This document shows, one piece after another, positions 27,203-61,057 of a stretch of 64,000 nt of DNA (position 1 is its first letter; every line of letters begins with the position of its first letter). Made by a program: the position numbers and the translations under genes. The notes beneath the pieces are model-generated. The model worked only from the letters and a program-made list of their open reading frames with translations, did not search any database and had not been told where the DNA came from. Source of the stretch: an uncultured Ignavibacteria bacterium (GTDB lineage Bacteria; Zixibacteria; MSB-5A5; RBG-16-43-9); the NCBI GenBank assembly GCA_964511075.1, contig CAZEDM010000008.1, forward strand, positions 34,470 to 98,469, written 5' to 3'.

Positions 27203-27215
27203 AAAGATCGTTTTA

Positions 27216-29389: not shown

Positions 29390-29391
29390 GG

Positions 29392-30543: not shown

Positions 30544-30574
30544 ATCTCCTTTTTAGTTTTTATTTTACGTGTAT

Positions 30575-31246: not shown

Positions 31247-31312
31247 ATAAAGCTCCTTTGATGAGGTATCTTCTTAAAAAAACCTGTTTACCTTTATCCT
31301 TATATCTATGGC

Positions 31313-32786: not shown

Positions 32787-35438
32787 ATGAGTAATAGAAA
32801 AAGGATTTTGATTGTTACCTGCTTTTTGATTTTTATGGGCTTTCAATTATCTTCAGCCGCATCTCCCGTGGCTAAAATAAGGCTTTTGGCTTATTCAGAA
32901 AGAGACCTTGCCCTTGATACCACTTTGACAAGAACTTCGACCGGGTTGCCTAATGTAGGTGTTGGGAGTATGGTTTATTTTACTGCTAATCCTGAGGAGC
33001 CCGGTGCTTATACTTATACCTGGACTCTTAGCACCCCTCTTGGTTCCTCCACCACCCTGAGCGATGATGCTATACAGAATCCTACTATGGTTCCGGATTT
33101 GGAGGGAACTTATATAGTTACTCTGGTGATAGCAGATACCTCTGGAACAAGCGATCCTGATACGATGTATATCAGTGCCGGAACCTGGGTGGGCACAGGG
33201 CAAATAGGCGGGATGACCCCGCATTGGCCCCAGTGTGGCTTCTTCTGCCATAATGATAAGATCGCCGAATGGGAGGAAACCGGACACGCTGTTATCTTTC
33301 AGCAAGGTTTAGACGGGATAGCCAGTAGCCACTATGGTTCAAGTTGTATCAGCTGTCACACGGTTGGATATGATACAGACCCGGCCGCAGATAATTTCGG
33401 CTTTGATGATGTGGCAACATTATTAGGCTGGACCTTCCCGGATACTCTATTTCCTGGTCAGTTTGATTCCCTGGTAATCAATTATCCGGATTTAGCTAAC
33501 TTGGGAAATATCCAGTGTGAGAACTGTCATGGTCCGGGTAGCAGGCACGGCGGAGAGGACAGATGGAACAGGATTGCGGTTAGCTATGGATCCGGGGTCT
33601 GTGCCTATTGTCATGACTCAGGCACTCATCATATAAAACCTTATCAGTGGGATTATTCCAGGCATCCATTTGCAGTAGGGGAACATGATCACATGAACCG
33701 AACTTCCTGCTCCAGATGTCATACTGCTCAGGGTTATATAGACGAGACCATAAACGGAGGTTCCTCCGGTGCACCTTATAAGTACGCGGAGGGTGTAACC
33801 TGTAGCGCCTGCCATGACCCTCACAGCGATGCCAATGAGTATCAGCTCAGGAGAGCAGAGGTTTACGGTGTTTGTTACGACTGTCATACGCTAAGAGTCA
33901 GCAGTCACGGGATCCATCATTCGCACCAATCCGATATGTTAGAAGGAAACAGCGGATACGAGTACCCAGGAGAGCTGTATCCGGTTGGGAGTCATACTTA
34001 CACAACCGAGAAATGCGTGGGATGTCATATGGCAACATCTCCTGCGGATAGCCTGGTCACCAAGGTGGGCGAGCATACCTTTGCGGTCTTCTCAGACAAC
34101 GGGACTCCGGACGACTCTACTGATGACATCCTGAATGATGAGGGGTGCAAGGGATGTCATGGCAGTGTAAGCCTGGTTTTCCTCAGGAAAAGTCAGGAGA
34201 AATTTGTGAATCTACTTGATTCGCTGGCAGCTTTACTTCCCAAGGATGGAAGTGGTGAGGTCATTAGCCATACGGAAGATGATCTTCTGACCCTGACTGA
34301 AATAGGAGGAGCTTACAACTACTATTTTGTGCTGGATGACGGAAGTTATGGCACACACAACCCCAGATATGCGGAAAAACTCTTATGGGATTCCATTAAG
34401 AGGTTAGTAGCTCAGATGCATGCCGGGGACATAGTGGAGATATCGGATGTGCCTAATGATCAGGGCAAACAGGTGAGGATCCTCTGGAATATGTTTGCCG
34501 GCGAGGACGATGTCGATCATCCGGTCACTCAATATGGGATCTGGCGAAGAGATGAGTCCTCTACCGCAAAAGCTTTGACTGGGAAGGTGAATACCTTCAA
34601 GGAGTTGCTCTCCTACTATCCTAACATAGAAGCCGGAGCTACCTTCTCGGTGGCAGGGACGATCTGGACTTTCTTGGGCTCAATCCCGGCCTCCCATCAT
34701 GAGCGTTATGGTTATGTAGCTCCTACTCTTTTTGACTCCACCATTGTTTCCGGAATGCAGTGGTCAGTTTTCTACGTATCCGGTCATACGGCTGACCCTG
34801 GCATCTTCTACGAGTCCTACCCGGATAGCGGATATTCAGTGGACAACCTGGTTCCCGCTCCTCCCACCGGCCTGGCAGCTATTATTCAGGGGCGGAATGT
34901 CCAGTTGAGCTGGGATGACTCTTCGGATCCTGATTTTGACTACTTTGCCGTCTATAGAAGCACTACCCCGGGATTTACCCCCTCTCCGGCTAACCGTATA
35001 GGCTATAGTTCCAATCCCGAGTATGTGGACTCCAATTTAGTTAATGGAACTCATTATTATAAATTAACCGCCACCGATTTCTCTGGAAACGAAGGAGGTC
35101 CATCGCTTGAGCTTCCGATTAACATCACCTCAGTCAGGGAGGAAGAGGGAGCTGTGCCCAAGGTGTTTGCCCTGTTCCAGAACTATCCCAATCCCTTCAA
35201 CCCGTATACTCAGATCAAATTCTCCGTGGCTAATAGAACTAAGGTGGGACTCTCGGTTTACAATATCCTGGGACAGAGGGTGAAAACTCTACTGGATGAA
35301 GAGATGGAAGCAGGGAATTATGTGGCTACTTGGGACGGAAAGGATGAGAAAGGATATGATGTCTCCAGCGGAATCTATTTCTACAAACTGAATACCAAGG
35401 AGTTCACCCAGACCAAAAAGATGCTTCTGGTCAGATAG
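32787..35438 (+). CDS. Secreted multihaem cytochrome c (8 CxxCH + 1 CX3CH) with fibronectin-III domain and T9SS-type C-terminal sorting domain
   Basis: Signal peptide. Haem motifs include CGFFCH. FN3-like PAPPTGL...LSWDDSSD...YRS. C-terminus FALFQNYPNPFNP.T.I.F......VGLSVYNILGQRV..L.........WDGKDEKG..VSSGIYFYKL......TKKMLLV is the Por/T9SS CTD pattern. Confidence 0.85.
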   Translation: MSNRKRILIVTCFLIFMGFQLSSAASPVAKIRLLAYSERDLALDTTLTRTSTGLPNVGVGSMVYFTANPEEPGAYTYTWTLSTPLGSSTTLSDDAIQNPTMVPDLEGTYIVTLVIADTSGTSDPDTMYISAGTWVGTGQIGGMTPHWPQCGFFCHNDKIAEWEETGHAVIFQQGLDGIASSHYGSSCISCHTVGYDTDPAADNFGFDDVATLLGWTFPDTLFPGQFDSLVINYPDLANLGNIQCENCHGPGSRHGGEDRWNRIAVSYGSGVCAYCHDSGTHHIKPYQWDYSRHPFAVGEHDHMNRTSCSRCHTAQGYIDETINGGSSGAPYKYAEGVTCSACHDPHSDANEYQLRRAEVYGVCYDCHTLRVSSHGIHHSHQSDMLEGNSGYEYPGELYPVGSHTYTTEKCVGCHMATSPADSLVTKVGEHTFAVFSDNGTPDDSTDDILNDEGCKGCHGSVSLVFLRKSQEKFVNLLDSLAALLPKDGSGEVISHTEDDLLTLTEIGGAYNYYFVLDDGSYGTHNPRYAEKLLWDSIKRLVAQMHAGDIVEISDVPNDQGKQVRILWNMFAGEDDVDHPVTQYGIWRRDESSTAKALTGKVNTFKELLSYYPNIEAGATFSVAGTIWTFLGSIPASHHERYGYVAPTLFDSTIVSGMQWSVFYVSGHTADPGIFYESYPDSGYSVDNLVPAPPTGLAAIIQGRNVQLSWDDSSDPDFDYFAVYRSTTPGFTPSPANRIGYSSNPEYVDSNLVNGTHYYKLTATDFSGNEGGPSLELPINITSVREEEGAVPKVFALFQNYPNPFNPYTQIKFSVANRTKVGLSVYNILGQRVKTLLDEEMEAGNYVATWDGKDEKGYDVSSGIYFYKLNTKEFTQTKKMLLVR

Positions 35439-35460
35439 AAAAAGTGGTTTAGCTATCAAG

Positions 35461-35497
35461 AAAACCGACCCTGGCCTTCACATGGGTCGGTTTTCTT
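35461..35497 (+). terminator. Rho-independent terminator after the T9SS cytochrome gene
   Basis: AAAACCGACCC-loop-GGGTCGGTTTTCTTAT. Confidence 0.5.
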
Positions 35498-35849
35498 ATA
35501 GCTTAGAGATCGTGATTAAAAGAGTGAAGAATCTGCAAAGGAGTCCTTCATAAGAAGAAAATCCAGGTATTTCAGCAAAGGGAAGTATTTATCCTTCTCA
35601 TATTTTCAGGAGATGTTGACGAGTTGACATACGTGGGGAATAATTTTTGTTTTTCCAGTAAACAGTTCCAAGATGCTTTTGCATTGGAGACTTCGGGATC
35701 TGAATGAATTTGAGGAATCAATTTGTTACAATCTTTGAAAATATAAGGAGAGTTTTTTCTTGACATCTTTGGTCTTGTTTACCATTCTATTGTAGGTTTT
35801 TAGATTAAGCATTTTTGAAAAGAGTGATTTCTGAAAAAGGGAAAGCCGA

Positions 35850-37163
35850 GTGAAGAAAAAGATATTTTTCCTGGGAACAGCAACCCTGATTATCTTAGGA
35901 TTATTCGGATGCACTAAAAATAAATTTAAACCTACCAGTTCACAGCCTATAGATATCCCCTACTATAATTCAGCTAATGATTCCTGTTTTGTCTGCCATA
36001 ACGACCCATCTTTAAAAAAGACCATCGGAGCAGAGACGGTCCCGCTTTATGTTGACCGTGAGAGATTCGCCCGCTCCATTCACCGGGCTAATCGATGTCT
36101 GGATTGCCATACGGACATAGTTTTCTATAAAGGGCATTCCGAGGCGGTGAAGACCTATGGGGGCTGGGCAAATTTCAGCGCCGAGGATACCAGCCAGACC
36201 AGAAATTATCACACCAGCGCCTCCATCTCCTGTGGTAACTGTCATACAGATCAATCAGGTTTCTTCTCAAGTCAGCATTATCTGATCGAGGATATTAAGC
36301 AGTCTCGCCAGGAGACTCACGATGGTATGGAGATAGGCAAGGATTATGATGAGGCCAAGTGTGGTAAATGCCATCTTACCTGTGCCACCTGTCATTTTAA
36401 AGGTGAGAGAGTTCAACAGAATTTTGGAGAGATAACTGATTATTGGAGTCAATTATTAACAGGCAATCAGGTTCCAGGAGCAGATGAGATGACCGACTGG
36501 TCGATCGACTGGACCACCAACATTGAATCGCACGATTTTGCTAAAGCTGAGGATCTAGAAGGTTCGAATGATTTGTGCCGGGTATGTCACACAGGTTATT
36601 ATACCCAGTACGGGGTCCGTGGATTCCCGAACTCAGATACGCTGGTTCACGATATGATAACCAGCCAGGGGGTGGTGAAATATCCTCAATATGAGGAGTG
36701 GAGCTTTCTAAAAGGTGATATTAGTGTAATGACAGGGGTTTCTTATTTAGATTCGATATATGCACGAATGGGAAATTCAGACCATTACTCTCGGAAATGC
36801 ATCGACTGTCATGATAAAATTCATTCCTTAACGCCCATCACTTGCTTGAAGTGTCATGCTGATAAGGTAATTCCGAAGGGCAGAGAGCATTCTGATGTGG
36901 GTTGTGAGGCTTGTCACGATGCTACGATGAAGCCGTTCAGAGTAAACTATTCAGTATTCCCCCGGGCTGACACCGTGAGAGCAGCAGCAATTAAAGATAA
37001 TAAAGTCATAGATTGGCGCTCCCATATGATTGTTGATCCGAGGAATACGTTAGGAGTTCCTGATTTCTGTATCTATAAATGCCATAATCCGGTGGGGCAA
37101 GGTACGGTTGGTGCTCCCAAGAACTTTGAGATAATGGAAATTCATGATCAAGATGATAAATGA
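35850..37163 (+). CDS. Multihaem cytochrome c lipoprotein (9 CxxCH + 1 CX3CH)
   Basis: GTG start. Lipobox LFGC. Motifs CFVCH, CLDCH, CGNCH, CGKCH, CATCH, CRVCH, CIDCH, CLKCH, CEACH, CIYKCH. Confidence 0.85.
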   Translation: MKKKIFFLGTATLIILGLFGCTKNKFKPTSSQPIDIPYYNSANDSCFVCHNDPSLKKTIGAETVPLYVDRERFARSIHRANRCLDCHTDIVFYKGHSEAVKTYGGWANFSAEDTSQTRNYHTSASISCGNCHTDQSGFFSSQHYLIEDIKQSRQETHDGMEIGKDYDEAKCGKCHLTCATCHFKGERVQQNFGEITDYWSQLLTGNQVPGADEMTDWSIDWTTNIESHDFAKAEDLEGSNDLCRVCHTGYYTQYGVRGFPNSDTLVHDMITSQGVVKYPQYEEWSFLKGDISVMTGVSYLDSIYARMGNSDHYSRKCIDCHDKIHSLTPITCLKCHADKVIPKGREHSDVGCEACHDATMKPFRVNYSVFPRADTVRAAAIKDNKVIDWRSHMIVDPRNTLGVPDFCIYKCHNPVGQGTVGAPKNFEIMEIHDQDDK

Positions 37164-37169
37164 GGAGAG

Positions 37170-38394
37170 AATGAAGCGAAAGGTCATTTTAGTTCTAAGT
37201 TTATTGAGCCTCTTTATTTTCAAGAATGGTCAGGCTGTTGAGCTTAAAGCCAACATCTCCACCTGCTTTAACTCCTATCAGACTCAGGACCTTTATACTG
37301 AGGAGAAGACCTCTTACCTCAGAGCTTATCAGAGTTTCAGGTTTGATTTAACAGAATTGGGAACAAAAGACCTGTCCTTTCACACTTATTTTCGCTCCAC
37401 TACAGATCTTCTCCATGAGAATTCCACTGATCCCTCCACAAAAATTTATAACGCCTATCTCAACTGGAAAAATATCAAGAAGGTATTAGATTTAAGATTA
37501 GGCAGGCAGTTTCTGTATGCGGGAGTGGGGAATGCGACTATGGACGGTTTGAGATTGGATCTCAAACCCAAGCAAAAGCTTCAGCTGACCGCATATGCGG
37601 GGTTTCAACTTCCCCGGTATAAATGGACCAAAATAGATACCTGGGAGAAAAGCCATATTTTCGGCGGCGAGATATCAACCACATATCTGAAAAATACCAG
37701 ATTGGCTGTAAGCTATGTTCAGAAAGAAAGAGAGAAGGCTTTGGAGGAGCATTTGATCGGGATCAATGCCGCTCACCTTTATAAAAAACTTGATTTCTAC
37801 AGCCAGTTTTATTATAACCTGGTTTACAAGAAAGTTCAGAACTTAACCTTGAGAGGAGCCTGCTCAAGGCTTTGGGATAAACTCTACCTCTCACTGGAAT
37901 ATCAATTCCGCAGACCCAGCATATACTCCAACTCTATCTTCAGCGTTTTCAAACAGGAGAGTTATTCCATTTTCAGGTTCTCAGGCTCCTATCAGCTATT
38001 GAGAGATCTCAGATTCTCTTCGGAGTATGATCTGACCCTCTACGAGTCGGATAACTCCGCTCGCACAAGACTGGGGATAGAATATGCCTTTATAGGTCTG
38101 GGAGTTAATTTCAGAAGAGGATACGGCGGGGAGAACAATGGGGTTTATGGGAAACTGGTGTATTCCCTTAAGAGGAATTTAATCTTGTCAGCCTGTGCTG
38201 ATTACGGCAAGTACAAGCTGGATGAGGAACAGGAAAGCACAGACGAGTCGTTCATACTTTCCTCGAGACTGGAATGGGAGCCCTTGAGAAACTTCAGGTT
38301 TGCACTGGAGCTTCAGGATTTAAGGAATAAAGTCAAAAGCTACGACTTCAGATTCCAGGGAAGGGCAAGCTATAGATTCGGGCTTTCATTTTAA
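37170..38394 (+). CDS. Putative outer-membrane beta-barrel protein (porin-like component of a porin-cytochrome conduit)
   Basis: Signal peptide (MKRKVILVLSLLSLFIFKNGQA). Alternating amphipathic beta-strand pattern. C-terminal ...YRFGLSF ends in Phe. GAGGAG ribosome-binding site 4 nt before the ATG at 37170 (the longest ORF would start at 37144). Confidence 0.55.
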
Positions 38395-38440
38395 GATTCG
38401 GGGAAGGGATTTGTAGAACAGGACATAAAAAGGAAATGGG

Positions 38441-39493
38441 ATGAGATTTTCAGGCAGAGTTTTCATAGGAACACTTCTGACCATGGTGTTCAGCTGGATA
38501 ATGTTCTCAGCGCTTTTCGCCAGCTTGGAGATACCCAAAAGCGACATCATATTTTCGCATAAGAAACACTCAGACCAGCCCTGCACCAACTGCCACCCTC
38601 AGATAGAGGAGAGTGATAAAGCCGGCGATAAAAACCTTCCCTCTATGGATATCTGCACCGAATGCCATGATGGCGAGATGTTGCCGGGCGAATGTTCGGT
38701 CTGCCATAGAGATAAGGAGAACCCCCAGGCACTGGTCAACCCCCAGAGGGATTTTATCTTCTCTCACCAGAAACATCTGCAGAGGAAAACAGAGTGTTCT
38801 TTCTGTCATGGTGACGTGAGCAATAAGGATAAGCTGGATTCCGGGAATATGCCGGATATGGGGAAATGCTACCAATGTCATGAGGGGTTCAAAGCACCAA
38901 ATAACTGCGAGCTCTGTCATACGGAGATGAATTTGAGAAAATATCACCCGGATGACTGGCAACACGCCCACCAATTTCAGGCGGAAATTAAAAAGGAGAA
39001 GTGCATCCAGTGTCACCAGAAGGAGGACCTCTGTCAGAAATGTCATCAGGGAGATAACCTGCTTCAAACCACTCATCCGCTGAACTATTATTATACTCAC
39101 GGACTGGATGCCAAATCCAAAGAAAAGGATTGTCTGTCCTGTCATCTCACCAAGGAGTTCTGCGATAACTGTCATTCCCAAGAAGGTGGAAAACCTTTGA
39201 ACCATTCTATCCCGGGCTGGGGTTTTTCTGGAAAACATGGAGAGTTTGCCAGAAAAGATATGGAATCATGCGCTTCCTGTCACGATACGGCTGACCCTAT
39301 CTGCACCTGGTGTCACCAGGATAAGAATCCCGGCAGAGGGAATGACCATAATATCCACCCTGCGGGTTTTGCCTCCAGTTTGGATAAAGGACCCTGGCAT
39401 GAGGACGAGGGGTATTTCTGCTACGAGTGTCATACTAAAGGACTTAAAGCAGGAGAAGGGTTCTGCGGATATTGCCATGGAGACGGAGATTAA
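38441..39493 (+). CDS. Multihaem cytochrome c with 14 CxxCH motifs
   Basis: N-terminal signal/anchor. 14 CxxCH in 350 aa, many preceded by distal-His FSH.KH segments (c3/c7-like repeats). Confidence 0.85.
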   Translation: MRFSGRVFIGTLLTMVFSWIMFSALFASLEIPKSDIIFSHKKHSDQPCTNCHPQIEESDKAGDKNLPSMDICTECHDGEMLPGECSVCHRDKENPQALVNPQRDFIFSHQKHLQRKTECSFCHGDVSNKDKLDSGNMPDMGKCYQCHEGFKAPNNCELCHTEMNLRKYHPDDWQHAHQFQAEIKKEKCIQCHQKEDLCQKCHQGDNLLQTTHPLNYYYTHGLDAKSKEKDCLSCHLTKEFCDNCHSQEGGKPLNHSIPGWGFSGKHGEFARKDMESCASCHDTADPICTWCHQDKNPGRGNDHNIHPAGFASSLDKGPWHEDEGYFCYECHTKGLKAGEGFCGYCHGDGD

Positions 39494-39601
39494 CCCAGAA
39501 GTTTTTTCACTTGACATAATCTCTTATTTTAGATATAATCAGAACTAAAATTGTCTTTTTTGTGAAGAAAATAACAAGTATCACAAAAGAGAGATTGATT
39601 G

Positions 39602-40054
39602 ATGGCTGAAGAAGGCGAAAAGAAAATCTCCAGGCGGTCTTTTCTGGACCGTCTTATAGTCGGCTCTATGTTCGTATCTGCCTTAGCAGTGCTTGGCTCA
39701 GTTTTGACCTATATTTACCCGCCGAAGAAAGAGGGTGGGGCAGAAAGAGCAGAGAGGGTTGAGGTTGCCTCTTTAGCTGATCTACCTGTTGGCAAAGCCA
39801 AGCCGGTGGTATATCAGAACAAAAATGTCATGGTGATGCACGTGCAGGCTGGGCTTTTTGCCGTGAGTATGAAATGCACTCACCTGGGGTGTATGGTGGA
39901 ATGGGAGGAAGGTCCTCAGACCTTGAAATGTCCCTGCCATGCCGCCTTTTTCGACTATCAGGGAAAGGTGATCTCTGGCCCTGCACCCAAGCCCCTCCCC
40001 GCCTATAAGGTAGAGGTGGCAAATGATATCATATACGTTACCGGATTAGCCTAA
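39602..40054 (+). CDS. petA: Rieske [2Fe-2S] subunit of a cytochrome bc-type complex
   Basis: Tat-like SRRSFLDRL plus transmembrane helix. Rieske boxes CTHLGC and CPCH. Confidence 0.85.
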   Translation: MAEEGEKKISRRSFLDRLIVGSMFVSALAVLGSVLTYIYPPKKEGGAERAERVEVASLADLPVGKAKPVVYQNKNVMVMHVQAGLFAVSMKCTHLGCMVEWEEGPQTLKCPCHAAFFDYQGKVISGPAPKPLPAYKVEVANDIIYVTGLA

Positions 40055-40056
40055 GG

Positions 40057-40800
40057 ATGGATGAGAAGGGAAAAAAGATAGGTCCGAAACTCAAACGCTG
40101 GACTGAGGAGAGATTCAACCTCAGGCAGTTGGTGGGTGTTCTTTTAAATATATTCCCGGTGATCTATGGGGAATTAGATCAGAGATTAGACGTAAAAGAG
40201 GGGTTGCAAAAACTACTCAAGAAGCCGGTACCCAAGGGGTTAAGCTTTCTGCATTGTTTCGGGGGAATGACCTTTCTTCTGTTTGTGATTCAGGTCTTTA
40301 CCGGTATACTTTTAGCCATATATTATAAACCTTCAGCTGCAGATGCCTACACCAGCGTCAAATACATCACCGATACAGTGCCCCTGGGCTGGCTGATAAG
40401 GCAGATCCATGCCTGGGGTGCGAATCTGATGGTAATCACCATGTTCGTACATATGCTGAGGGTGTATTTTCATGGTGCCTTTAAAAATCCCAGGGAGCTG
40501 AACTGGATGGTGGGGACGGTTTTGTTTATACTCACCTTAGCTTTTGGATTTACCGGCTATCTTCTTCCCTGGGATCAGAGGTCCTACTGGGGTACAACCA
40601 TAGGGACTGAGGTAGCAGGCGGTGTTCCCTTTATCGGTAAATATCTTCTGATTATCCTGAGAGGCAGCCTCAACGTGACCGGTGATACTTTAACCCGGTT
40701 TTATTCTGTGCATGTCCTTATACTTCCCTGGGTGACAGCTCTTTTTCTGGCGCTTCATTTCGCCATGGTGAAAAGGCAGGGGGTTGCCAAACCTCTGTAA
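40057..40800 (+). CDS. petB: Cytochrome b6-like subunit (N-terminal half of split cytochrome b)
   Basis: Four-helix cytochrome b N-terminal pattern with conserved His pairs (RQIHAWGANLMV...FVHMLRVYFHGAF; GYLLPWDQ.S.W). Confidence 0.8.
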   Translation: MDEKGKKIGPKLKRWTEERFNLRQLVGVLLNIFPVIYGELDQRLDVKEGLQKLLKKPVPKGLSFLHCFGGMTFLLFVIQVFTGILLAIYYKPSAADAYTSVKYITDTVPLGWLIRQIHAWGANLMVITMFVHMLRVYFHGAFKNPRELNWMVGTVLFILTLAFGFTGYLLPWDQRSYWGTTIGTEVAGGVPFIGKYLLIILRGSLNVTGDTLTRFYSVHVLILPWVTALFLALHFAMVKRQGVAKPL

Positions 40801-40837
40801 AAATAGTGAGAAGTTAAAGGGAATACGAAGGGATAAG

Positions 40838-41326
40838 ATGGAAGCAGAGAAAGAGAAGAAAAACAATGAGGGGATGGAAGAGGGAAAGCCTTTTTATCCT
40901 AATCATTTCCTGAAGGAAGTTATCGTAGCTTTCCTTCTTTTTGGGGTTCTCCTAAGCTTAGCTGTTTTTTTCCCCTTTCCTTTTCATGAGAAAGCTAATC
41001 CCTTTCAAACCCCTGAGGGGATCAAGCCGGAATGGTATTTTCTGGCTGGGTATCAGATGTTGAAATATGTGCCTAAGGTGGTGGGGATTGTGGGGATAGG
41101 AATTGTGATGGTTATTCTTTTTATAGTTCCCTTCCTTGAAAGAAGTCCAGAACGTCATCCTTCGAAAAGGAGATTTGCCCGAGCGATTGGTGTGGTGGTG
41201 ATAATTTTCGCTGTCCTCTTTTCACTCTTGGGCTATCTATCTGAATCGACTCAGACTGTTTTGGGAAAGAAATATCATTTCGATCTAAAAGGGGTTCCCT
41301 ATAAAGTTGAGGAGCCAAAAAAATAG
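40838..41326 (+). CDS. petD: Subunit IV-like protein (C-terminal half of split cytochrome b)
   Basis: PEWYFLAGYQMLKYVPK matches the cytochrome b C-terminal/subunit IV PEWY motif. Three transmembrane helices. Start placed at the ATG after the petB stop. Confidence 0.7.
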   Translation: MEAEKEKKNNEGMEEGKPFYPNHFLKEVIVAFLLFGVLLSLAVFFPFPFHEKANPFQTPEGIKPEWYFLAGYQMLKYVPKVVGIVGIGIVMVILFIVPFLERSPERHPSKRRFARAIGVVVIIFAVLFSLLGYLSESTQTVLGKKYHFDLKGVPYKVEEPKK

Positions 41327-42583
41327 ATGAGAAGGGACATTTTTAGAAAAATCAGCCTGCTGGTAATAACCGTTTTTTTCTTCTATAGGCCTGTCCTTCC
41401 CCAGGACATTGAATCGTATTCCTGTATGGTCTGTCACGGTGAAAAGAAGGTGGAATATCTGAAGAGCATCCATTGGGAGAAGGAGATGTGGTGCGCTGAT
41501 TGTCATGGTGGAGACCCTTCCAGCCTGGATCCAGAGGTTTCCATGTCAGCTAGGGCCGGGTTCAAGGGAAGGTTTACCAAAAAAGAGGTGGTTTACCTGT
41601 GCGGAAATTGTCACGCGGACAAAAAAAGGATGAGACAATACGGGATATCCACTGATCAGTTAGATTATTACCGTACGAGTGAGCATGGAATAGCTCTTCT
41701 TAAAAAGAACGATCCGAGTGTGGCTGGATGCGTGGACTGCCATGGTAGCCACAGCATTACCTCCGTGAAAGACCCGGAGAACAAGGTTTTCCCCACTAAT
41801 CTTCCCCAGACTTGCGCCATGTGCCATTCGGACAAAAAACTCATGGAGAAATATGGTCTGCCTTACAATACCTTAGAGGAATATGTCTCAAGCGTTCACG
41901 GTAAGGCGCTTTTGGAGAAAAACGACAGGTCAGCTCCTACCTGTGCAGGTTGTCACAGTAGCCATGGTGCAGCTCCTCCTGGTGTTACAGAGATAGAGAA
42001 TGTGTGCGGGAAATGCCATATCAATTCAGAGACGAATTTCGCCAAGAGCCCACATCTGGAGGCTATGAGGAAGATGAATCTGTCACAGTGCGCCTCCTGC
42101 CACCAGCATCACTCTATTAAATATCCAGATATATCCATGTTCGATCAGGTATGTTCAAATTGCCACGAGCCCGGATCAGGCGCCTATAAGAGAGGACAGC
42201 AGATAAAAGCTCTGATCCTGGAGGCACAGGACCAGATACAGAAGGCAAAGGAGTTAATCCAGAAGGGCAAATCCAGGGGACTGGATGTCTCTCAGTTCGA
42301 GCCTGAATTGGAACAAGCCAATACCGCCATGTTGCAGGTTCTGCCAGTAACTCACAGTCTGGTCCTCTCTAAGGTCGAGGAGATAACCAGCAGCGCCAGA
42401 ACCTTAGCCGGAGAGATATCCGCTTCCGTTCACAACTATCTGGAATCATTACGCCTGAGAAAGGTGGGGTTAGGGATTGTCTGGCTTTTTATCTTTTTCG
42501 TGGTGGTGATATTGTATATAAAGGTGAAGAGGGCAGATAGTGAATTCGAATTAGCTCAGCAAAAAAATAAAGGAAAAGACTGA
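41327..42583 (+). CDS. Membrane-anchored 9-haem cytochrome c, the likely c-type subunit of the bc complex
   Basis: Nine CxxCH. C-terminal transmembrane helix LGIVWLFIFFVVVILYI. Start abuts the petD stop. Confidence 0.8.
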   Translation: MRRDIFRKISLLVITVFFFYRPVLPQDIESYSCMVCHGEKKVEYLKSIHWEKEMWCADCHGGDPSSLDPEVSMSARAGFKGRFTKKEVVYLCGNCHADKKRMRQYGISTDQLDYYRTSEHGIALLKKNDPSVAGCVDCHGSHSITSVKDPENKVFPTNLPQTCAMCHSDKKLMEKYGLPYNTLEEYVSSVHGKALLEKNDRSAPTCAGCHSSHGAAPPGVTEIENVCGKCHINSETNFAKSPHLEAMRKMNLSQCASCHQHHSIKYPDISMFDQVCSNCHEPGSGAYKRGQQIKALILEAQDQIQKAKELIQKGKSRGLDVSQFEPELEQANTAMLQVLPVTHSLVLSKVEEITSSARTLAGEISASVHNYLESLRLRKVGLGIVWLFIFFVVVILYIKVKRADSEFELAQQKNKGKD

Positions 42584-42608
42584 GTTCTCAACAGAGGTGT
42601 CCATTTAG

Positions 42609-42647
42609 TAAAACCGATGCCTTTTCACCGAGGTGTCGGTTTTATTC
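42609..42647 (+). terminator. Possible rho-independent terminator (stem with two G.U pairs, then a T-run)
   Basis: AAACCGATGCC-loop-GGTGTCGGTTTTATT. Confidence 0.35.
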
Positions 42648-42670
42648 CGTTAGTTTAGAAGGGTGCGGAG

Positions 42671-44677
42671 ATGAGACTGGATTTTTTCAAGCAGGAAAAA
42701 TTTAAGAAGAGAATGATCAGGGCGGGCAAAGTTCTTCTGGCTCTTTTAGTCTTTGGGGTTATTTTAACCTTCATAGGCGTGGAATACAGCGCCAAGCCGG
42801 AGTTCTGCATCACCTGTCATTATATGCAGCCCTATTATGACGGCTGGAAAACCTCCACCCATAACATGGTCTCCTGCGTGGACTGTCACTACCCACCGGG
42901 AATAGAAAGCGAGCTGAGAGGTAAGTTCGAGGCCTTAGTCTCAGTGGCTAAATATGTTACCGGCACCTACGGAAAAAGCAGACCCTGGGTGGAGATAAGT
43001 GACCAGAGCTGCCTGAGGTCTGACTGTCATGAGAAAAGACTGCTTCAGGGCAAGGTGAGCTTTGGGAATATCCTTTTCGACCATACTCCACATCTGTTTG
43101 AAATGAAAAGGGGGATGAAGCTGCGCTGTACCAGCTGTCACTCTCAGATAGTCCAGAGAGTCCATATGACAGTCACCAATAACACCTGTTTCCTCTGTCA
43201 TTTTAAGGAAGTTGAAGGAGAGATGCCCCTGGGCGGATGTCCCTCCTGTCATGGTGCTCCAACCTCGATAGTGGAATATCAGGGGATAAAATTTGATCAT
43301 AAAGAGGCGGTGAAGCTCGGAATAGACTGCATGAAATGTCATTTTGATGTGGTGCAGGGACAGGGGAACGTCTCCAAAGAGAGATGTTTTAACTGCCATA
43401 CTGAGCCTGACCGTCTGGAGAAATACCAGGACGTTTTGCTGATGCATATGTATCATGTGACCAACCATAAGGTAGACTGTTTGAGATGTCACGAGGAGAT
43501 CAAGCATCAGATGATCTCTATGGCGAAGTCCATAGAGGTGGATTGCAACTCCTGTCATCCAGCTCATCATGTGGCTCAGAAGGAGCTTTTCATAGGGACA
43601 GGCGGAAAAGGAGCAGAGCAGATTCCTGACCCCATGTTCCTTGTGCGGGTGAGCTGTACAGGCTGTCATATCTCTCACCAGGGAGATGAACTTAAAGGAA
43701 AGACTGCCTTTGCCTCACCGGCTGCCTGTATCTCATGCCACGGGTCGAATTACGGGCAGATCCTGGAGGAGTGGAAGATGGTAATGAGCAAATCGCTTTC
43801 CCAGATATCTCCGATTTTAAGCCAGGCGGAATCCGAACTGAAGACAACTGCAACCAAGGGGGAGGCTTTTCTAAAAGGCAAGGCACTGATAAGCGAAGCC
43901 AAATCCAATATAGATCTGGTGAGGGAGGGTAAGGGGGTACACAACATAAAATACTCCATCCATCTTTTGGAAGTTGCTCATCAGAAGCTCAAACAGGGAT
44001 TGAAGGCACTCGGTTCTAAATATCAGGTCCCCGCATTGGCCTTGCCTTCGCTAACTCCCAAGACCGAGTGCTATACCTGTCATTTAGGGGTAGAGACCAA
44101 GACCGTTTCAGCCTTCGGGTTGACCTTTCCCCATCAGGCACATTTAGTTAAAGCCAATATACCCTGCGGAAGCTGTCATTCCAATGAAAGAGTACATGGA
44201 GAGCTGATTCTGAAGAAGGAGAGTTGTACCAGCTGTCATCACATCAAAAGAGGAGACTGCCAGGGCTGTCATCCGGTTCAGGAGGAATTTCGCCAGGGAT
44301 TTGAGGTTTTGGATTATGACTCAATCCCCGCCCCTATGGCGGATTTAAGTTGCAAGGACTGTCATTCCGAGATTGAATTTCAGCAGACATCAAGGGTAGT
44401 CAGAGATGCCTGTGTCAACTGTCATGATAAAGATTATATCCAGATTCTGGAGGAACAGCAGCAGGAGATAAAAGAGCGTATACAGGAAGCAAGGGATTTT
44501 GTGTCCCGCTTTGAGGGAAAAGGGAAGCTCAGCTCTGAGCAGCAGGAGAAAATAGATTATATTCAGGAAAGAATAGACCTGATGGAAAAGGACAAAAGCC
44601 TTGGCGGCCATAATTATAACTTAAACCAGAGAATGCTTGAGGATATCAAAGGGGTGATGGAGGAGTTAGGAGGTTAG
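42671..44677 (+). CDS. NapC/NirT/NrfH-like membrane quinol dehydrogenase fused to a large multihaem domain (17 CxxCH + 1 CX4CH) with C-terminal coiled coil
   Basis: N-terminal transmembrane helix then CITCH...CVDCH...CLRSDCH...CTSCH (NapC-like tetrahaem layout), followed by 14 further CxxCH. 668 aa. Confidence 0.8.
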   Translation: MRLDFFKQEKFKKRMIRAGKVLLALLVFGVILTFIGVEYSAKPEFCITCHYMQPYYDGWKTSTHNMVSCVDCHYPPGIESELRGKFEALVSVAKYVTGTYGKSRPWVEISDQSCLRSDCHEKRLLQGKVSFGNILFDHTPHLFEMKRGMKLRCTSCHSQIVQRVHMTVTNNTCFLCHFKEVEGEMPLGGCPSCHGAPTSIVEYQGIKFDHKEAVKLGIDCMKCHFDVVQGQGNVSKERCFNCHTEPDRLEKYQDVLLMHMYHVTNHKVDCLRCHEEIKHQMISMAKSIEVDCNSCHPAHHVAQKELFIGTGGKGAEQIPDPMFLVRVSCTGCHISHQGDELKGKTAFASPAACISCHGSNYGQILEEWKMVMSKSLSQISPILSQAESELKTTATKGEAFLKGKALISEAKSNIDLVREGKGVHNIKYSIHLLEVAHQKLKQGLKALGSKYQVPALALPSLTPKTECYTCHLGVETKTVSAFGLTFPHQAHLVKANIPCGSCHSNERVHGELILKKESCTSCHHIKRGDCQGCHPVQEEFRQGFEVLDYDSIPAPMADLSCKDCHSEIEFQQTSRVVRDACVNCHDKDYIQILEEQQQEIKERIQEARDFVSRFEGKGKLSSEQQEKIDYIQERIDLMEKDKSLGGHNYNLNQRMLEDIKGVMEELGG

Positions 44678-44904
44678 AATTTATTTACCTTTTGTCAGCA
44701 TAAGATTAGGAAGATTTACATGTTGCGTTGAATAGTGATGTTGATAGTCAAAAAAAATGAACCCTTGCGATACAGGTCAGATTGAGATCCCATTCTATTC
44801 AGGAAGTAACGAGATATTGGAGGGCGATGGTAGTTTTACTCATCTTAAGTGGATTTTTACGTATACTCTAAGTTGGATAAGAAAACAGAGGAGAGAAAAG
44901 AAAA

Positions 44905-45270
44905 ATGAAGTTAAAATATGTTGTAGGCCTAGGGGTGATCTTGGTATTCATAATTTTTGGTGCCTTATCTTTCAGGAAGAACCTTACCCCTTATGTGGGG
45001 TTCAAGGAAGCCAAGAGCTTAAACACCTCTGTGCAGATAATAGGTGTGGTGATACCGGAGGAGACCAGTTATGACCTTGAAAATCATAAGCTCTACTTCA
45101 GCTTGAAAGACCCTCAAGGCGAAAAGATGCGAGTTATTTATCCGGGGGTTAAACCGGCTAATTTCGAGCAGGCTACTAATATCGTGGCTATTGGCAGATA
45201 TCAGGAAGGGGAATTTTTAGCTGATCAGGTTCTGGTCAAATGCCCCTCCAAATATCAGGGAGAAGATTAA
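44905..45270 (+). CDS. ccmE: Cytochrome c maturation haem chaperone CcmE, Cys-variant (CxxxY instead of HxxxY)
   Basis: N-terminal anchor. OB-fold core (VQIIGVV...YFSLKD..GEKMRVIYPGVKPANFEQATNIVAIGRY). C-terminal KCPSKY. Confidence 0.75.
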   Translation: MKLKYVVGLGVILVFIIFGALSFRKNLTPYVGFKEAKSLNTSVQIIGVVIPEETSYDLENHKLYFSLKDPQGEKMRVIYPGVKPANFEQATNIVAIGRYQEGEFLADQVLVKCPSKYQGED

Positions 45271-47451
45271 ATGGTTTTAGGAGACTTATTTTTATGGCTG
45301 TGTTTTGTAGGGGCAGTTTTTTCTGCCCTTCTTTTTCTTTTGAGCGCCAAAGGGGATAGGAGGATATTCTCCTGGGGTAAAAAAGCTTATTACCTGACTT
45401 TCCTTTTTTCCTCCTTTGCCACTTTTCTCCTTTTTTATCTTTTTTTAACTCATGATTTTCAAACCTCCTATGTATTCAGTTACAGCTCAACCGATCTGCC
45501 ATTCTTTTACCTTATTTCCTCTTTCTGGGCGGGGCAGGAGGGGACCTTCCTCTTATGGCTTTTCATCGGACTTCTTTTGGGCCTTTTCCTGATTAACAGA
45601 AAGGGAGACGAGCTGCAAAGTCATCTTTTGTTTTTCTTCCTTACAGCTCAGATATTCCTGCTGGTTTTGCTTTTAAAGAAAAGCCCTTTTGAGCTTTTGC
45701 CAGAAACGCCCCTGGAGGGCCGGGGCCTTAACCCCCTTTTGAAAGACCCCTGGATGGTATCACACCCTCCTTTGATCTTCATCGGCTATGCCGCGCTGGC
45801 TATTCCCTTTGCCTATGCCTTGGCAGCCTTGATCAAGGATAAATATGATAGCTGGATAAAATTCTCCCTGCCCTGGGTTGGATTTTCAGCGCTGAGCTTG
45901 GGTGCTGGGATTTTCGTGGGAGGATTCTGGGCTTATAAGGTCTTAGGATGGGGAGGGTACTGGGGGTGGGACCCGGTGGAGAATGCCTCGTTGATTCCCT
46001 GGCTCACCACCATAGCTTTATTTCATGGAATTATTCTGGAGAGAAATAAAAAAAGTCTAAAAAAGACCAATCTTTTCCTTGCCCTGATCTCATTTCTCTT
46101 GGTTATCTATGGCACCTTTCTTACCCGCAGTGGGATCTTAGCTGATTTCTCTGTTCATTCCTTTGCTGATCTGGGGATTAATCAGTATCTTATTTTCTTT
46201 ATGCTTTTGTTTACTGCCTTCTCCTTGGGTCTTTTGGCTTTTCGCTCTTCAAAGCTAAAGGGTGCGGAAACTGGCAAATCCATTCTATCTCAGGACTTCG
46301 TCATCCTTCTGGGAATGATCTTTATATCCTTATCCGCGGTCTTGATCCTGGTTGGAACCTCCGCTCCTATCATAACCGGGATCTTGGGCCAAGCCTCAAA
46401 TGTCTCTGCGCCCTATTATGTCCGAACACATCTACCCCTTGCCATTGTTTTGGGATTACTCTTAAGCCTTACGCCATTTTTATCCTGGAAGGAGATAAAA
46501 GTCAAAGTGTTAGCAAGGAATATAGCTCTTCCCCTGGGGATTGCCGTGATCTTCTCACTCATAGCCTGGATATCGGGAGTAAGAAAATTATCCTATTTTC
46601 TCTTCCTCTTTTTTTCAAGCTTCCTTGTGATTTCGAATTTAATGATTTTTTACAAAAGGTTAAAAGGAAATCTCCTCAACACCTCAGGTTATTTAACCCA
46701 TATAGGGGTAGGCTTAATGTTCATAGGTATCCTCACCTCTTCCGCATATTCCGAATCTGAGAAACTGAACCTACCAGAAGATGAGCCCAAGGCAGCATTC
46801 GGTTATCAGCTTACATTTAGGGGCGAGGAGAATCCATCTCCCAAAGAGGGGAATTCTCTTTTAGTAGAAGTGAAAAAGGGAACAGATGACTTCATTGCCA
46901 AACCCAGGCTTTACTGGAGCGAATATAGTCAGGCGATGATGAGAAAACCAGCCATCAAAAGAAAGCTGACCGAAGATATCTATTTTGCGCCGCTGGAATA
47001 CAGCCAAAGGGAGCTTATCTTCTCTGAGCCCTTTAGCTTATCCAAGGGAGAGGAAAAGGAGATCGAGGGGTATAAGATTAAATTCCTAAGTTTTGATATG
47101 ACGCCACACCAGCAGGGTGGAGAGTTCAGGGTCGGGGCTGTGCTGGAGGTCAAGCACCAGGGCCAGAAATCAACTGCCACGCCAGCCATTGTTTTCAAAG
47201 AACAGAATCAGATGGCCCAGATAGAAGCTCAATTGCCAGACGACAAGCTGATCTTTTTGGAAAAGGTGATGGCTGATCAGAAGATGGTAGTTCTCAGTAT
47301 CGCCCTGAGGAAAAAAGAGAGTGGAGAGATTCTGGTATTGGAGGTCAGCAGAAAGCCTTTAATTAACCTTCTATGGCTGGGCATGATCGTGGTTATGGCA
47401 GGACTTTTTTTAACTACCTGGAGGGAGAAGCAAAGAAGCCCAAAACCATAG
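45271..47451 (+). CDS. ccmF: Cytochrome c-type biogenesis protein CcmF (System I haem lyase component)
   Basis: WWD domain WGGYWGWDPVENASLIPW. Polytopic membrane protein. 726 aa. Confidence 0.85.
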   Translation: MVLGDLFLWLCFVGAVFSALLFLLSAKGDRRIFSWGKKAYYLTFLFSSFATFLLFYLFLTHDFQTSYVFSYSSTDLPFFYLISSFWAGQEGTFLLWLFIGLLLGLFLINRKGDELQSHLLFFFLTAQIFLLVLLLKKSPFELLPETPLEGRGLNPLLKDPWMVSHPPLIFIGYAALAIPFAYALAALIKDKYDSWIKFSLPWVGFSALSLGAGIFVGGFWAYKVLGWGGYWGWDPVENASLIPWLTTIALFHGIILERNKKSLKKTNLFLALISFLLVIYGTFLTRSGILADFSVHSFADLGINQYLIFFMLLFTAFSLGLLAFRSSKLKGAETGKSILSQDFVILLGMIFISLSAVLILVGTSAPIITGILGQASNVSAPYYVRTHLPLAIVLGLLLSLTPFLSWKEIKVKVLARNIALPLGIAVIFSLIAWISGVRKLSYFLFLFFSSFLVISNLMIFYKRLKGNLLNTSGYLTHIGVGLMFIGILTSSAYSESEKLNLPEDEPKAAFGYQLTFRGEENPSPKEGNSLLVEVKKGTDDFIAKPRLYWSEYSQAMMRKPAIKRKLTEDIYFAPLEYSQRELIFSEPFSLSKGEEKEIEGYKIKFLSFDMTPHQQGGEFRVGAVLEVKHQGQKSTATPAIVFKEQNQMAQIEAQLPDDKLIFLEKVMADQKMVVLSIALRKKESGEILVLEVSRKPLINLLWLGMIVVMAGLFLTTWREKQRSPKP

Positions 47452-47932: not shown

Positions 47933-47933
47933 C

Positions 47934-48005
47934 TGAGGGTGGATGGGATCGAACCATCGGCCACCTGCTTAAAAGGCAGATGCTCTACCACTGAGCTACA
48001 CCCCC
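47934..48005 (-). tRNA. tRNA-Lys (anticodon TTT)
   Basis: Manually folded. Acceptor GGGGGTG/CACCCTC, D-arm GCTC-AGTGGTA-GAGC, anticodon arm TCTGC-CTTTTAA-GCAGG (positions 34-36 = TTT), T-arm GATGG-TTCGATC-CCATC, discriminator A. No encoded CCA. Confidence 0.85.
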
Positions 48006-48152
48006 AAATTTCCTTTAAAAGAGCTATACGCTGAAAATTGTCGAATCAAAGAGTTTTAGCTCTCCAAGACAACTAAAATATAGTTTGAAACTCTTTTGTC
48101 AAGTGGAAAGGTAACAGAGCAAAGGCGAGGAGACCTCGCCCCTACGGAAGAC

Positions 48153-50301: not shown

Positions 50302-51732
50302 TCATTTTATAGCTACCTTTTTCGACACCTGAGCCATATTTATTATAGGCAGTGCTGGCGCATCTTTTCCGAAAAGGGAATTTATAAGACCTTGAGGTGC
50401 TGAGCGATAGTTTAGAATGGCAATGACATTTAATGATTTAGATTCAGGAGTCAGAAAAGCATACCTTTCTATCACATTTCCCTTGGGCGGTATTCTATGG
50501 TCAGAGATTACATAAGTTCCCTTGGCTACATTCAAAGTCGGATTTCCTTTAGAATCGCCCAAGACCGTATTGAAGATCCTGGTTTCTTTATCCAGATCTC
50601 CTTTTTCATCTACTGTCCCGGAAGTGAAGACCGTATTCCCCTTATCATCCAAAACCCTAATCTCCAGCCAGAGCTCTCTTACTTCAGTCAAACCAGTAGG
50701 GAGATAATGTCCGCATCCTGTGTTGGTAACCATAATTTTGATTGTGCCAATACCATTAGCAGCGAATGTATCGGGTGCAAGGATTTCCAAGGATGCAGCA
50801 TTATTCAATCTCTCCTTGGCCAAGGTAAAATGAAGAGTATCTCCCAGGAGAAGAGGGATAACTCCATTTGCTCCCACATTGTAGTGGGTGTAGAAATGTT
50901 CTCTTTCCGGACCCATAAGGCAGGGCTTTCCGGGATTGTCCGGCCTTTCTGTTGCTCCGGTGGCAGGGATCCCTGGTCTTTGCCTCATATGGCAATCCTG
51001 ACAATGCACCGTAGTGTTAGGGTCCAGGGTATTATAGGGGCCTCCTCTCCATTCAGAATAGGTTTTCTCAATAGGCAGATCGTTTCGGGCATGGGTGACG
51101 TCATGACACATCCCGCAAAATTCGGAGGTGGTGTGAAGCTCGGAATACCCGGTTTTATGGAAGGGGGATTCCGAATCCTTATAAGGTCCCCATTTTGTTC
51201 CTGGATTATCCTCACCCTCTCCAGGCTCCAAAATAAAAGGGGCATTGCCTATTCCGGCGGAAGCTTTTACCGAATGGCAGAAATCACAGAAAACGCCTTT
51301 TGAACCTAACTCGCTTACCCTGGAATAATCGCCTTCGGTTGTGGGTAGCTCACCAGTCAAATGAGCTACCGGAGCATGACAGCGCACACAGGTCAGAGCC
51401 TCATCTTTTTCCATTTCATTTTCTGCTTGATTTAAGAACAGTTTGGAGACCTTTTGAAAGACCGGGTCCTTTAAAGCAAATGCATGCATACCTCCTTTCC
51501 ACTGCTGGTAAAGCTCATTATGACACCCAGAACATACCACAGGGTCTATGAACTGGTTTTGCTGGAAGTCTCCGGGTAAGGAGATCTTTCCATCCAGATC
51601 CATATTAGCTGGTCTTCTGGCAGTGGATTTGGGCCAGGTGGGCGAGTAATCATTGGTATCTGCAAAAACCATAATAGATAAGACAGCAAGTATCGATATG
51701 AACATAAGACCGAGTATAACTTTCTTTCTCAT
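50302..51732 (-). CDS. Secreted pentahaem c-type cytochrome with C-terminal beta-rich domain
   Basis: Signal peptide. Motifs CSGCH, CVRCH, CDFCH, CGMCH, CQDCH. 476 aa. Confidence 0.75.
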   Translation of the reverse strand: MRKKVILGLMFISILAVLSIMVFADTNDYSPTWPKSTARRPANMDLDGKISLPGDFQQNQFIDPVVCSGCHNELYQQWKGGMHAFALKDPVFQKVSKLFLNQAENEMEKDEALTCVRCHAPVAHLTGELPTTEGDYSRVSELGSKGVFCDFCHSVKASAGIGNAPFILEPGEGEDNPGTKWGPYKDSESPFHKTGYSELHTTSEFCGMCHDVTHARNDLPIEKTYSEWRGGPYNTLDPNTTVHCQDCHMRQRPGIPATGATERPDNPGKPCLMGPEREHFYTHYNVGANGVIPLLLGDTLHFTLAKERLNNAASLEILAPDTFAANGIGTIKIMVTNTGCGHYLPTGLTEVRELWLEIRVLDDKGNTVFTSGTVDEKGDLDKETRIFNTVLGDSKGNPTLNVAKGTYVISDHRIPPKGNVIERYAFLTPESKSLNVIAILNYRSAPQGLINSLFGKDAPALPIINMAQVSKKVAIK

Positions 51733-52645: not shown

Positions 52646-52656
52646 AGGAGAGAAAG

Positions 52657-53655: not shown

Positions 53656-53656
53656 T

Positions 53657-60884: not shown

Positions 60885-61035
60885 TTTATCCTACAACTCT
60901 TGTATTAACTATAAGACTAAAAGGTATTTTTGTCAAATCTTTCTTTAAGATTCTGACTCCTTAAATAAACCTCCTTTGGGATAAGCCCTGGTCGTTGATT
61001 TTCTGCTTGACAGGGGTTCAATTATATGATAAAAT

Positions 61036-61053: not shown

Positions 61054-61057
61054 GAAA

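Follow-up and report, generated by a model that had tools for sequence, protein, structure and literature searches.

The 64,000-nucleotide stretch of DNA analysed here (the window) is part of contig CAZEDM010000008.1 of an uncultured bacterium placed by GTDB in the Zixibacteria, and was the frame for searches for promoters and for oxidase, ccm and rhodanese genes. Within it, positions 35850-47451 hold 11 consecutive open reading frames (ORFs), all on the plus strand, encoding a putative porin-cytochrome conduit, a Rieske/cytochrome b complex, an 18-haem membrane-anchored cytochrome and two haem attachment proteins (Table 1). The original prediction for this DNA had described these genes as an eleven-gene co-oriented supercluster with about 51 haems. 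All eleven plus-strand genes are present, the motif count of the four cytochrome genes is exactly 51, and Pfam and NCBIfam searches agreed with every gene identity given (Rieske, b6, subunit IV, NapC/NirT head, CcmE and CcmF). The expected signal peptides are matched by an N-terminal hydrophobic leader on every cytochrome of the locus. The gene list was incomplete, a twelfth plus-strand gene with nine haem motifs and a type IX secretion system (T9SS) sorting domain at 32787-35438 having been missed, with which the locus reaches 60 haem motifs, and two starts required adjustment with the barrel gene beginning at 37171 rather than 37170 and the Rieske gene at 39599 (TTG) or 39602 (ATG). A separate Logan assembly (L001) matches the arrangement and is identical over 15,324 bases, ruling out an assembly chimera. 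Overall, the cluster is real and coherent but modular, facultatively linked and foreshadowed in the literature, and the locus is most likely a respiratory island made of at least four separately controlled modules.

The genes and their predicted products

Table 1. Genes and predicted transcription signals of the locus, with positions in the window
Feature	Position	Strand	Characteristics
Sigma-70-like promoter TTGACA-17-TAAAAT	32631-32659	+	11/12 consensus matches; intergenic, upstream of T9SS cytochrome gene
Predicted cell-surface cytochrome, 883 aa (amino acids), 9 haem motifs	32787-35438	+	8 CXXCH + 1 CX3CH, signal peptide, PKD-like domain, C-terminal T9SS sorting domain
Intrinsic-terminator-like hairpin after T9SS cytochrome gene	35458-35505	+	Minimum free energy (MFE) -33.7 kcal/mol, z -6.6, then U-run
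Lipoprotein cytochrome, 437 aa, 10 haem motifs	35850-37163	+	9 CXXCH + 1 CX3CH; lipobox LFGC at residues 18-21
Predicted outer-membrane beta-barrel, 407 aa	37171-38394	+	22 predicted strands, plug-less, C-terminal ...RFGLSF, unannotated family
Predicted periplasmic cytochrome, 350 aa, 14 haem motifs	38441-39493	+	14 CXXCH (motif count), signal peptide (leader)
Perfect sigma-70 consensus promoter TTGACA-17-TATAAT	39511-39539	+	12/12 matches; in 108-bp gap 39494-39601 before Rieske gene
Rieske 2Fe-2S subunit, 150 aa	39602-40054	+	PF00355 50.5 bits; Tat-type RRSFL; membrane anchor; CTHLGC, CPCHAA
Cytochrome b6-type subunit, 247 aa	40057-40800	+	PF00033 205 bits; NCBIfam b6 263 bits; ExtP 255 bits (cut-off 290)
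Subunit IV, 162 aa, three membrane helices	40838-41326	+	PF00032 71.8 bits; KPEWYF (PEWY motif); three hydrophobic segments
9-haem cytochrome, 418 aa	41327-42583	+	9 CXXCH, signal peptide, C-terminal membrane helix
Terminator/attenuator-like hairpin, 9-haem/18-haem junction	42607-42646	+	16-17 bp stem, then UUUUAUU; MFE -28 kcal/mol, z -3.5
18-haem membrane-anchored cytochrome, 668 aa	42671-44677	+	17 CXXCH + 1 CX4CH; NrfH/NapC-type N-terminal head with CxxCHxM; two haem-free helical segments
CcmE haem chaperone, 121 aa	44905-45270	+	PF03100 63 bits; ...VKCPSKYQGED, CPSKY in place of HxxxY
CcmF haem lyase, 726 aa	45271-47451	+	PF01578 122 bits, PF16327 106 bits, TIGR00353 317 bits

Only 7 and 46 nucleotides separate the first three genes of the block, which are kept as a tight unit in eight Zixibacteria loci, with the 10-haem lipoprotein gene directly upstream of the barrel gene in L002-L011 (48-64% identity). 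The structure prediction for the 407-residue protein was confident (pLDDT 90), giving a barrel of 22 strands with no plug. The barrel matched no Pfam or NCBIfam model, and an in-frame ATG at 37144 overlaps the gene before it. A database search returned 50 relatives, the close ones (67-88% identity) coming from metagenome-assembled genomes of Zixibacteria and so marking the source organism as a member of this phylum. An exhaustive profile search put the size of the family at 2,690 cluster representatives with a cut-off of E<=1e-3, or 1,268 with E<=1e-10. For scanning contigs by pattern, a 41-sequence alignment of the family was too divergent and a closer one of 16 sequences reached only close relatives. 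The gene for the 14-haem cytochrome adjoins the barrel gene in every relative, the distant ones included (L014 at 31% identity, L015, L016, L017, L076, L088 and L091), and in a PDB sequence search its product gave only haem-motif-level matches to ActA-type pentahaem subunits. A large barrel gene flanked by genes for a lipoprotein cytochrome (lipobox LFGC) and a periplasmic multihaem cytochrome is the pattern of Pcc-type (porin-cytochrome) systems, and from it, as in the original prediction, we infer a porin-cytochrome-like conduit in which the 14-haem cytochrome is proposed to thread into the barrel and meet the 10-haem lipoprotein, the putative conduit partner on the outer face.

The four genes that follow encode a predicted complex of the cytochrome b6f type. 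The Rieske protein has both boxes (CxHxGC and CxCH) together with an export signal and one hydrophobic anchor, it matched b6f PetC-type NCBIfam models and its best PDB match was a b6f-type Rieske protein (8hn2_A). In the sequence CPCHAAFF, the serine and tyrosine that raise the potential of high-potential Rieske proteins, as known from bc1 mutants, are replaced, and because of this the centre is predicted to be low-potential and of the menaquinol type. In an alignment of the cytochrome b6-type subunit with spinach b6 (223 bits), the four histidines that ligate the b haems are all in place, as is the cysteine to which haem ci is bound in b6f. The start codon of the 9-haem gene directly abuts the stop codon of subunit IV and Pfam and NCBIfam searches found no c1 or f gene in the module, such that the 9-haem cytochrome, with its C-terminal anchor, appears to take the place of c1/f as first suggested. 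A multihaem protein at the c1/f position is a known variation in anaerobic lineages. The nine haem motifs and the C-terminal anchor of this subunit are kept in L011-L014, and a PDB sequence search with it gave no match.

The 18-haem protein carries a membrane helix at residues 14-42 followed by the CxxCHxM first-haem motif, as in NrfH, NapC and CymA, scores 31 bits with PF03264 (NapC/NirT) against a cut-off of 24.1 and matches NrfH (2j7a_C) in the PDB over residues 27-91. Across 22 homologues there is no variation in residues C46, C49, H50 and M52 or in the CX4CH motif, and the 17+1 motifs are kept in Aminicenantes and Marinimicrobia. Classical members of the NrfH/NapC/CymA group have 4-5 haems in 140-390 residues, whereas the protein described here has 18 motifs in 668 residues, two helical inserts and a genetic tie to Rieske/cytochrome b. 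An assignment as a NapC/NirT/NrfH equivalog was rejected on the 18 motifs in 668 residues and a score of 68 bits against the TIGR03153 NrfH cut-off of 134, with the TorC models far below theirs. The protein is best described as a probable fusion or extension of a NapC/NrfH family head, in keeping with the NapC/NirT fusion that had been proposed, but not as a novelty since more than 1,764 database relatives with about 40% identity over the full length occur in Aminicenantes, Gemmatimonadota, Marinimicrobia and Zixibacteria. The AlphaFold2 model was poor (pLDDT 64.7, pTM 0.39), being confident only in the haem-free helical segments.

The block ends with ccmE and ccmF and is closed off by a tRNA-Lys (UUU) on the minus strand at 47933-48006, just downstream of ccmF. 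The cysteine-type motif of CcmE has been described in archaea and Desulfovibrio (PMC9084895). CcmF has the WWD motif WGGYWGWDPVEN at residue 227 and a ResB-like C-terminal segment (residues 657-721, 25 bits). The genes ccmA, B, C, D, G and H were not found among window ORFs of at least 120 amino acids, and the remaining ccm genes must lie elsewhere or be absent. The adjacency of ccmEF to the cytochrome genes, a part of the original prediction, does not hold in the closest relative with a rearranged locus (L011/L018): the gene after the 18-haem gene in L018 is a transposase-like one, not ccmEF. Elsewhere, genes for ResB and CcsA (System II) immediately precede the 18-haem gene in 21-22 of the 43 loci that have enough sequence on that side, an arrangement seen in Aminicenantes-like contigs (L012, L032, L038, L070 and about 20 other loci), and in L026 a CcmF gene is found near the bc/18-haem module. 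The nearness of haem attachment genes of either system to the bc/18-haem module is therefore a recurring one.

Upstream of the block lies the gene for the 883-residue cytochrome, the sorting domain of which scores 33 bits with Por_Secre_tail (PF18962) and 39.5 bits with TIGR04183 against a cut-off of 23. In L011 and in the KSB1 locus L016 the barrel module likewise has a T9SS cytochrome gene ahead of it. Searches returned more than 2,042 matches to the family across FCB-group phyla, found in Zixibacteria, Ignavibacteriae, Bacteroidota, KSB1, Calditrichaeota and Rhodothermales. By its gene neighbourhood the protein appears to belong to the same system as the conduit and is predicted to be a second candidate surface cytochrome beside the 10-haem lipoprotein. 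No paper pairing type IX secretion with multihaem cytochromes was found in the searchable literature.

Predicted transcription signals and comparative gene order

The promoter-like sequence ahead of the Rieske gene is the only exact TTGACA-17-TATAAT in the 64 kb, and four sites with at most one mismatch occur in the window against 0.38 expected. The bc modules of L011, L013 and L012 (Aminicenantes) also have a perfect consensus promoter ahead of their first gene. The hairpin at the junction of the 9-haem and 18-haem genes is found again at the same junction in L011 (2218-2326, minus strand), with compensating changes near the loop. Read-through from the 9-haem gene into the 18-haem gene is predicted to be attenuated there, and the hairpin, lying inside the bc module, may set the ratio of 9-haem to 18-haem product. 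On account of these internal promoters and hairpins at least four transcription units are predicted, comprising the T9SS cytochrome, the trio of lipoprotein, barrel and 14-haem genes, the Rieske-b6-subunit IV-9-haem genes and possibly ccmEF. A single 11-gene operon was rejected on the internal perfect promoter together with the conserved hairpin. The co-orientation of the genes does not equal co-transcription, and of the supercluster claimed originally the co-orientation has stood while the single unit has not, the signals dividing it and the linkage of its modules being facultative.

The closest comparison is with a 76%-identical relative (L011/L018), which possesses all of the modules in rearranged form, the bc/9-haem/18-haem unit being divergent from the T9SS cytochrome and trio, and an Hmc-like module following the trio. 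Directly after the 18-haem gene, L018 carries a transposase-like helix-turn-helix gene (12358-13383, plus strand). Mobile elements may have reshuffled the modules. Because L011/L018 carries the modules in another order and orientation, the exact gene arrangement of the window is specific to its lineage.

Parts of the arrangement are far more widespread. Genes for a Rieske protein, cytochrome b and a 9-haem protein of about 420 residues lie beside the 18-haem gene, with the same haem counts, in genomes of Aminicenantes, Zixibacteria and Marinimicrobia, and among the 28 metagenome loci that extend 3 kb or more to either side, 18 have Rieske/cytochrome b genes adjoining the 18-haem homologue, so that Rieske/cytochrome b/9-haem/18-haem appears to be a module conserved across phyla. 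The joining of this inner module to the outer one also recurs. In the Marinimicrobia locus L014, genes for the barrel (26% identity), the 14-haem cytochrome (31%), a small lipoprotein cytochrome, Rieske, cytochrome b and 9-haem, 4-haem and 18-haem cytochromes follow one another, so that a different phylum shows an order co-linear with that of the window. The bc genes come first in L015, an unassigned genome, followed by a NapC-type cytochrome and then the barrel with its cytochrome, while on the metagenome contig L076 genes for NapC-type, 18-haem, Rieske, cytochrome b, 9-haem-like, barrel and 14-haem-like proteins lie on one strand with the 9-haem-like and barrel genes overlapping by 4 nucleotides. 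Further orders of barrel/14-haem genes next to bc/NapC genes are seen on the metagenome contigs L088, L091, L092 and L093. As the neighbourhood recurs despite shuffling, it supports a predicted functional coupling of the inner and outer modules.

A proposed electron path and its alternatives

The interpretation favoured here, held with about even confidence, is outward electron transfer from menaquinol to acceptors outside the cell. The Rieske/b6 complex, and possibly also the NrfH-type head of the 18-haem cytochrome, would oxidise menaquinol and pass the electrons on to the anchored 9-haem subunit and to the 18-haem chain. From there they would cross the periplasm, enter the 14-haem protein within the barrel and leave the cell by way of the 10-haem lipoprotein and the T9SS protein. 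The long haem chain of the 18-haem protein could bridge the periplasm to the barrel and so link the inner and outer modules, while CcmE and CcmF would attach haem to the haem-rich proteins of the island. An outward direction is favoured because there are two predicted surface cytochromes (the lipoprotein and the T9SS protein), because the nearby EtfAB and membrane iron-sulphur/CCG oxidoreductase could feed the quinol pool, and because no oxidase or carbon-fixation genes were found nearby in the window. A path from the inner membrane to the surface had been proposed from the outset, and by comparison it gains ground from the barrel/14-haem relatives which adjoin bc/NapC genes in varied orders.

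Several observations weigh against such a path. The modules carry separate promoter-like and terminator-like signals. In six genome loci the trio is kept at 48-77% identity, in four of them (L003, L004, L005 and L007) with no Rieske, cytochrome b, 18-haem or Ccm gene in the available 9-10 kb and in the other two (L008 and L009) among housekeeping genes; since the trio stands alone in all six, the conduit does not need the bc module as a neighbour. The barrel family is found near the 18-haem homologue in only 6 of 80 loci (2 of the 13 with at least 6 kb on both sides), and the KSB1 locus L016 pairs the barrel module with an NrfCD-type module. The Hmc-like module 4 kb upstream in the window could equally well feed the conduit, and the model of the 18-haem protein (pLDDT 64.7) is too poor to judge whether its length is sufficient to span the periplasm. 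A Rieske centre normally needs an acceptor above about +100 mV, which is marginal for many Fe(III) minerals. Finally, Fe(II) oxidation was favoured for a cluster of the same kinds of genes in Zixibacteria RBG-1 (Castelle et al., 2013, PMC3903129).

The separate predicted promoters and terminators, the trio alone among housekeeping genes in the six related loci, the changed order and orientation in L011/L018 with a transposase-like gene beside the module, the 74 of 80 18-haem loci with no barrel within reach and the KSB1 pairing with an NrfCD-type module would all fit independent respiratory modules with no direct hand-off between them. The bc/9-haem/18-haem module would then serve soluble periplasmic acceptors, and the conduit would be fed by another inner-membrane complex, for instance an Hmc-like one. 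This explanation is considered unlikely, because a recurring adjacency of barrel and bc genes is hard to explain without a shared function, the barrel/14-haem pair adjoining bc/NapC genes in at least four arrangements across distant lineages, with the 4-nucleotide overlap in L076 and the co-linear order in L014.

The same path could also be run inwards, with electrons from Fe(II), a reduced mineral or a cathode entering through the barrel and part of them being driven uphill through a reversed Rieske/cytochrome b complex to menaquinone. A reversed bc1 complex has been proposed for Acidithiobacillus ferrooxidans. In keeping with an inward path, Fe(II) oxidation was judged the likelier role of the porin/decahaem/PetAB cluster of RBG-1 (PMC3903129) and porin-cytochrome conduits are treated as reversible (PMC7005843). 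The argument made for RBG-1 rested, however, on absent extracellular cytochromes, whereas two surface cytochromes are predicted here; searches of the window found no terminal oxidase, carbon-fixation genes or high-potential monohaem or copper carrier, and an electron-transfer-flavoprotein (ETF) type electron-input module lies nearby. Inward flow is on balance improbable.

A role for the barrel as a substrate porin, admitting oxyanions such as selenite or tellurite for reduction by periplasmic cytochromes as proposed for Geobacter ExtI, is very unlikely. No ExtH-type rhodanese was found in the window, and ExtP alone of the Ext models scores close to its cut-off, the others falling far short. 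A haem-dense periplasmic cytochrome always follows right after the barrel and in this locus a lipoprotein cytochrome stands before it, which at gaps of 7 and 46 nucleotides is the signature of a porin-cytochrome system, and 22 strands without a plug make for a barrel wider than the 18-strand Occ porins.

Within the outward interpretation a more far-reaching proposal, possible but doubtful, is that Rieske/b6, 9-haem and 18-haem proteins make up one uncharacterised machine. Menaquinol oxidation through a proton-motive Q-cycle would in that case lead by way of a periplasm-spanning haem wire to the 22-strand barrel/14-haem conduit and the T9SS-displayed cytochromes. This would amount to energy-conserving extracellular electron transfer mechanistically distinct from the CymA, ImcH and CbcL routes, and common to Zixibacteria, Marinimicrobia, Aminicenantes and other uncultured phyla.

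Related systems and neighbouring genes

The joining of bc and porin-cytochrome genes had originally been thought new, yet two earlier clusters anticipate it. In Geobacter sulfurreducens, extHIJKLMNOPQS (GSU2940-2930) joins a porin-like protein of about 45 kDa with Rieske, cytochrome b, a small membrane subunit and multihaem cytochromes (PMC5877670), of which ExtM (12 haems, 68 kDa) and ExtN (10 haems, 47 kDa) resemble in size the 668- and 418-residue proteins described here (PMC5877670). Both are single co-oriented clusters, and the b6-type subunit approaches the ExtP model at 255 bits. In contrast to ext, the present locus has haem counts of 9 and 18, an NrfH-type membrane head, a porin flanked by lipoprotein and 14-haem cytochromes and an added T9SS cytochrome, and no rhodanese or selenocysteine cytochrome was found here. 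Orthology with ext was rejected on scores against cut-offs of 255 vs 290 (ExtP), 30 vs 150 (ExtQ), 25 vs 800 (ExtM), 21 vs 200 (ExtN) and 20 vs 200 (ExtO), the ExtM/N/O matches being only at the haem-motif level and an ExtKL-like match (54 vs 250) falling on a separate minus-strand gene. The locus thus probably works like the Geobacter ext cluster and is not a member of it.

The second precedent is from the same phylum. The Zixibacteria RBG-1 cluster holds a decahaem cytochrome (MtrA-like), an MtrB-like outer-membrane porin, several multihaem cytochromes of the periplasm or inner membrane and the Rieske/cytochrome b complex PetAB and was read as iron respiration (Castelle et al., 2013, PMC3903129). 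Compared here by its published description only, it has the same kinds of genes, and while RBG-1 was reported to be without extracellular cytochromes (PMC3903129), the present locus has two candidates for them. Geobacter-like porin-cytochrome operons in Zixibacteria are also reported by FeGenie (PMC7005843). With OmaB-OmbB-OmcB, ExtABCD and Shewanella MtrCAB the trio shares neighbouring genes for a periplasmic multihaem cytochrome, a barrel and a surface lipoprotein multihaem cytochrome. The barrel gave no match to the MtrB family model PF11854 and has 22 strands against about 26. Membership of the MtrCAB/MtoAB/PioAB group was rejected on this and on the decahaem model TIGR03508, with which the 14-haem protein scores 20.8 bits and the 9-haem protein 41.5 bits against a cut-off of 192.

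Complexes of the b6f type with multihaem c subunits have been described (Dibrova et al., 2013, as cited in PMC5317091). The complex of the window resembles them in its split b6 and subunit IV, haem ci cysteine, PEWY motif and multihaem c protein replacing c1/f, and differs in the 9-haem subunit and 18-haem NrfH fusion, operon-linked to a barrel in some lineages. Set against the searchable literature, the barrel family, the T9SS-sorted cytochromes and the bc-linked family of 18-haem proteins with an NrfH head appear to be new.

Sediments and aquifers are rich in Zixibacteria and their neighbours, none of which has been cultured, so that their role in iron and manganese cycling is judged from the reading of such loci. 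If the bc/9-haem/18-haem module does feed the conduit, metal respiration would pass through a proton-pumping Q-cycle enzyme, which would alter the energy yield to be expected and the acceptor potentials within reach, a matter that bears on energy conservation in extracellular electron transfer, which is an open question in the Geobacter field. Three groups that have no specific curated model could serve as annotation markers: the T9SS multihaem cytochromes, the 18-haem NrfH fusions and the barrel family of 22 strands, with its roughly 2,700 cluster representatives.

Other genes with a bearing on electron transfer surround the block. On the minus strand at 26366-31972 lies the Hmc-like membrane complex, comprising an NrfD subunit that resembles HmcC (468 bits), a 4Fe-4S subunit and a multihaem cytochrome whose C-terminal part is HmcA-like, interleaved with three membrane-anchored glycine-cleavage H (lipoyl-carrier-like) domain proteins, one of which has an HmcD-like N-terminus. 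The Hmc-like/GcvH-like set also follows the barrel trio in L011. Downstream, 51851-55663 on the plus strand encodes EtfB, EtfA and a 668-residue membrane protein with NarI-like, 4Fe-4S and CCG domains, which together look like an electron-transfer-flavoprotein:quinone input module. A secreted 5-haem cytochrome of 476 residues is encoded at 50302-51732 on the minus strand, its weak ExtKL match reaching 53.6 bits against a cut-off of 250.

Dockerins are unusual outside cellulosome-forming Firmicutes. Dockerin type I domains are present on three secreted proteins encoded on the plus strand of the window (9733-11394, 15386-16897 and 17125-18666), and dockerin proteins also flank the trio in L008 and L009. 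Towards the end of the window, 60995-61684 on the plus strand encodes a Rex-type redox-sensing regulator with a DNA-binding N-terminus and a CoA-binding domain. A near-consensus promoter at 61007-61035 falls just inside the start of this ORF, and the true start of the gene may lie downstream.

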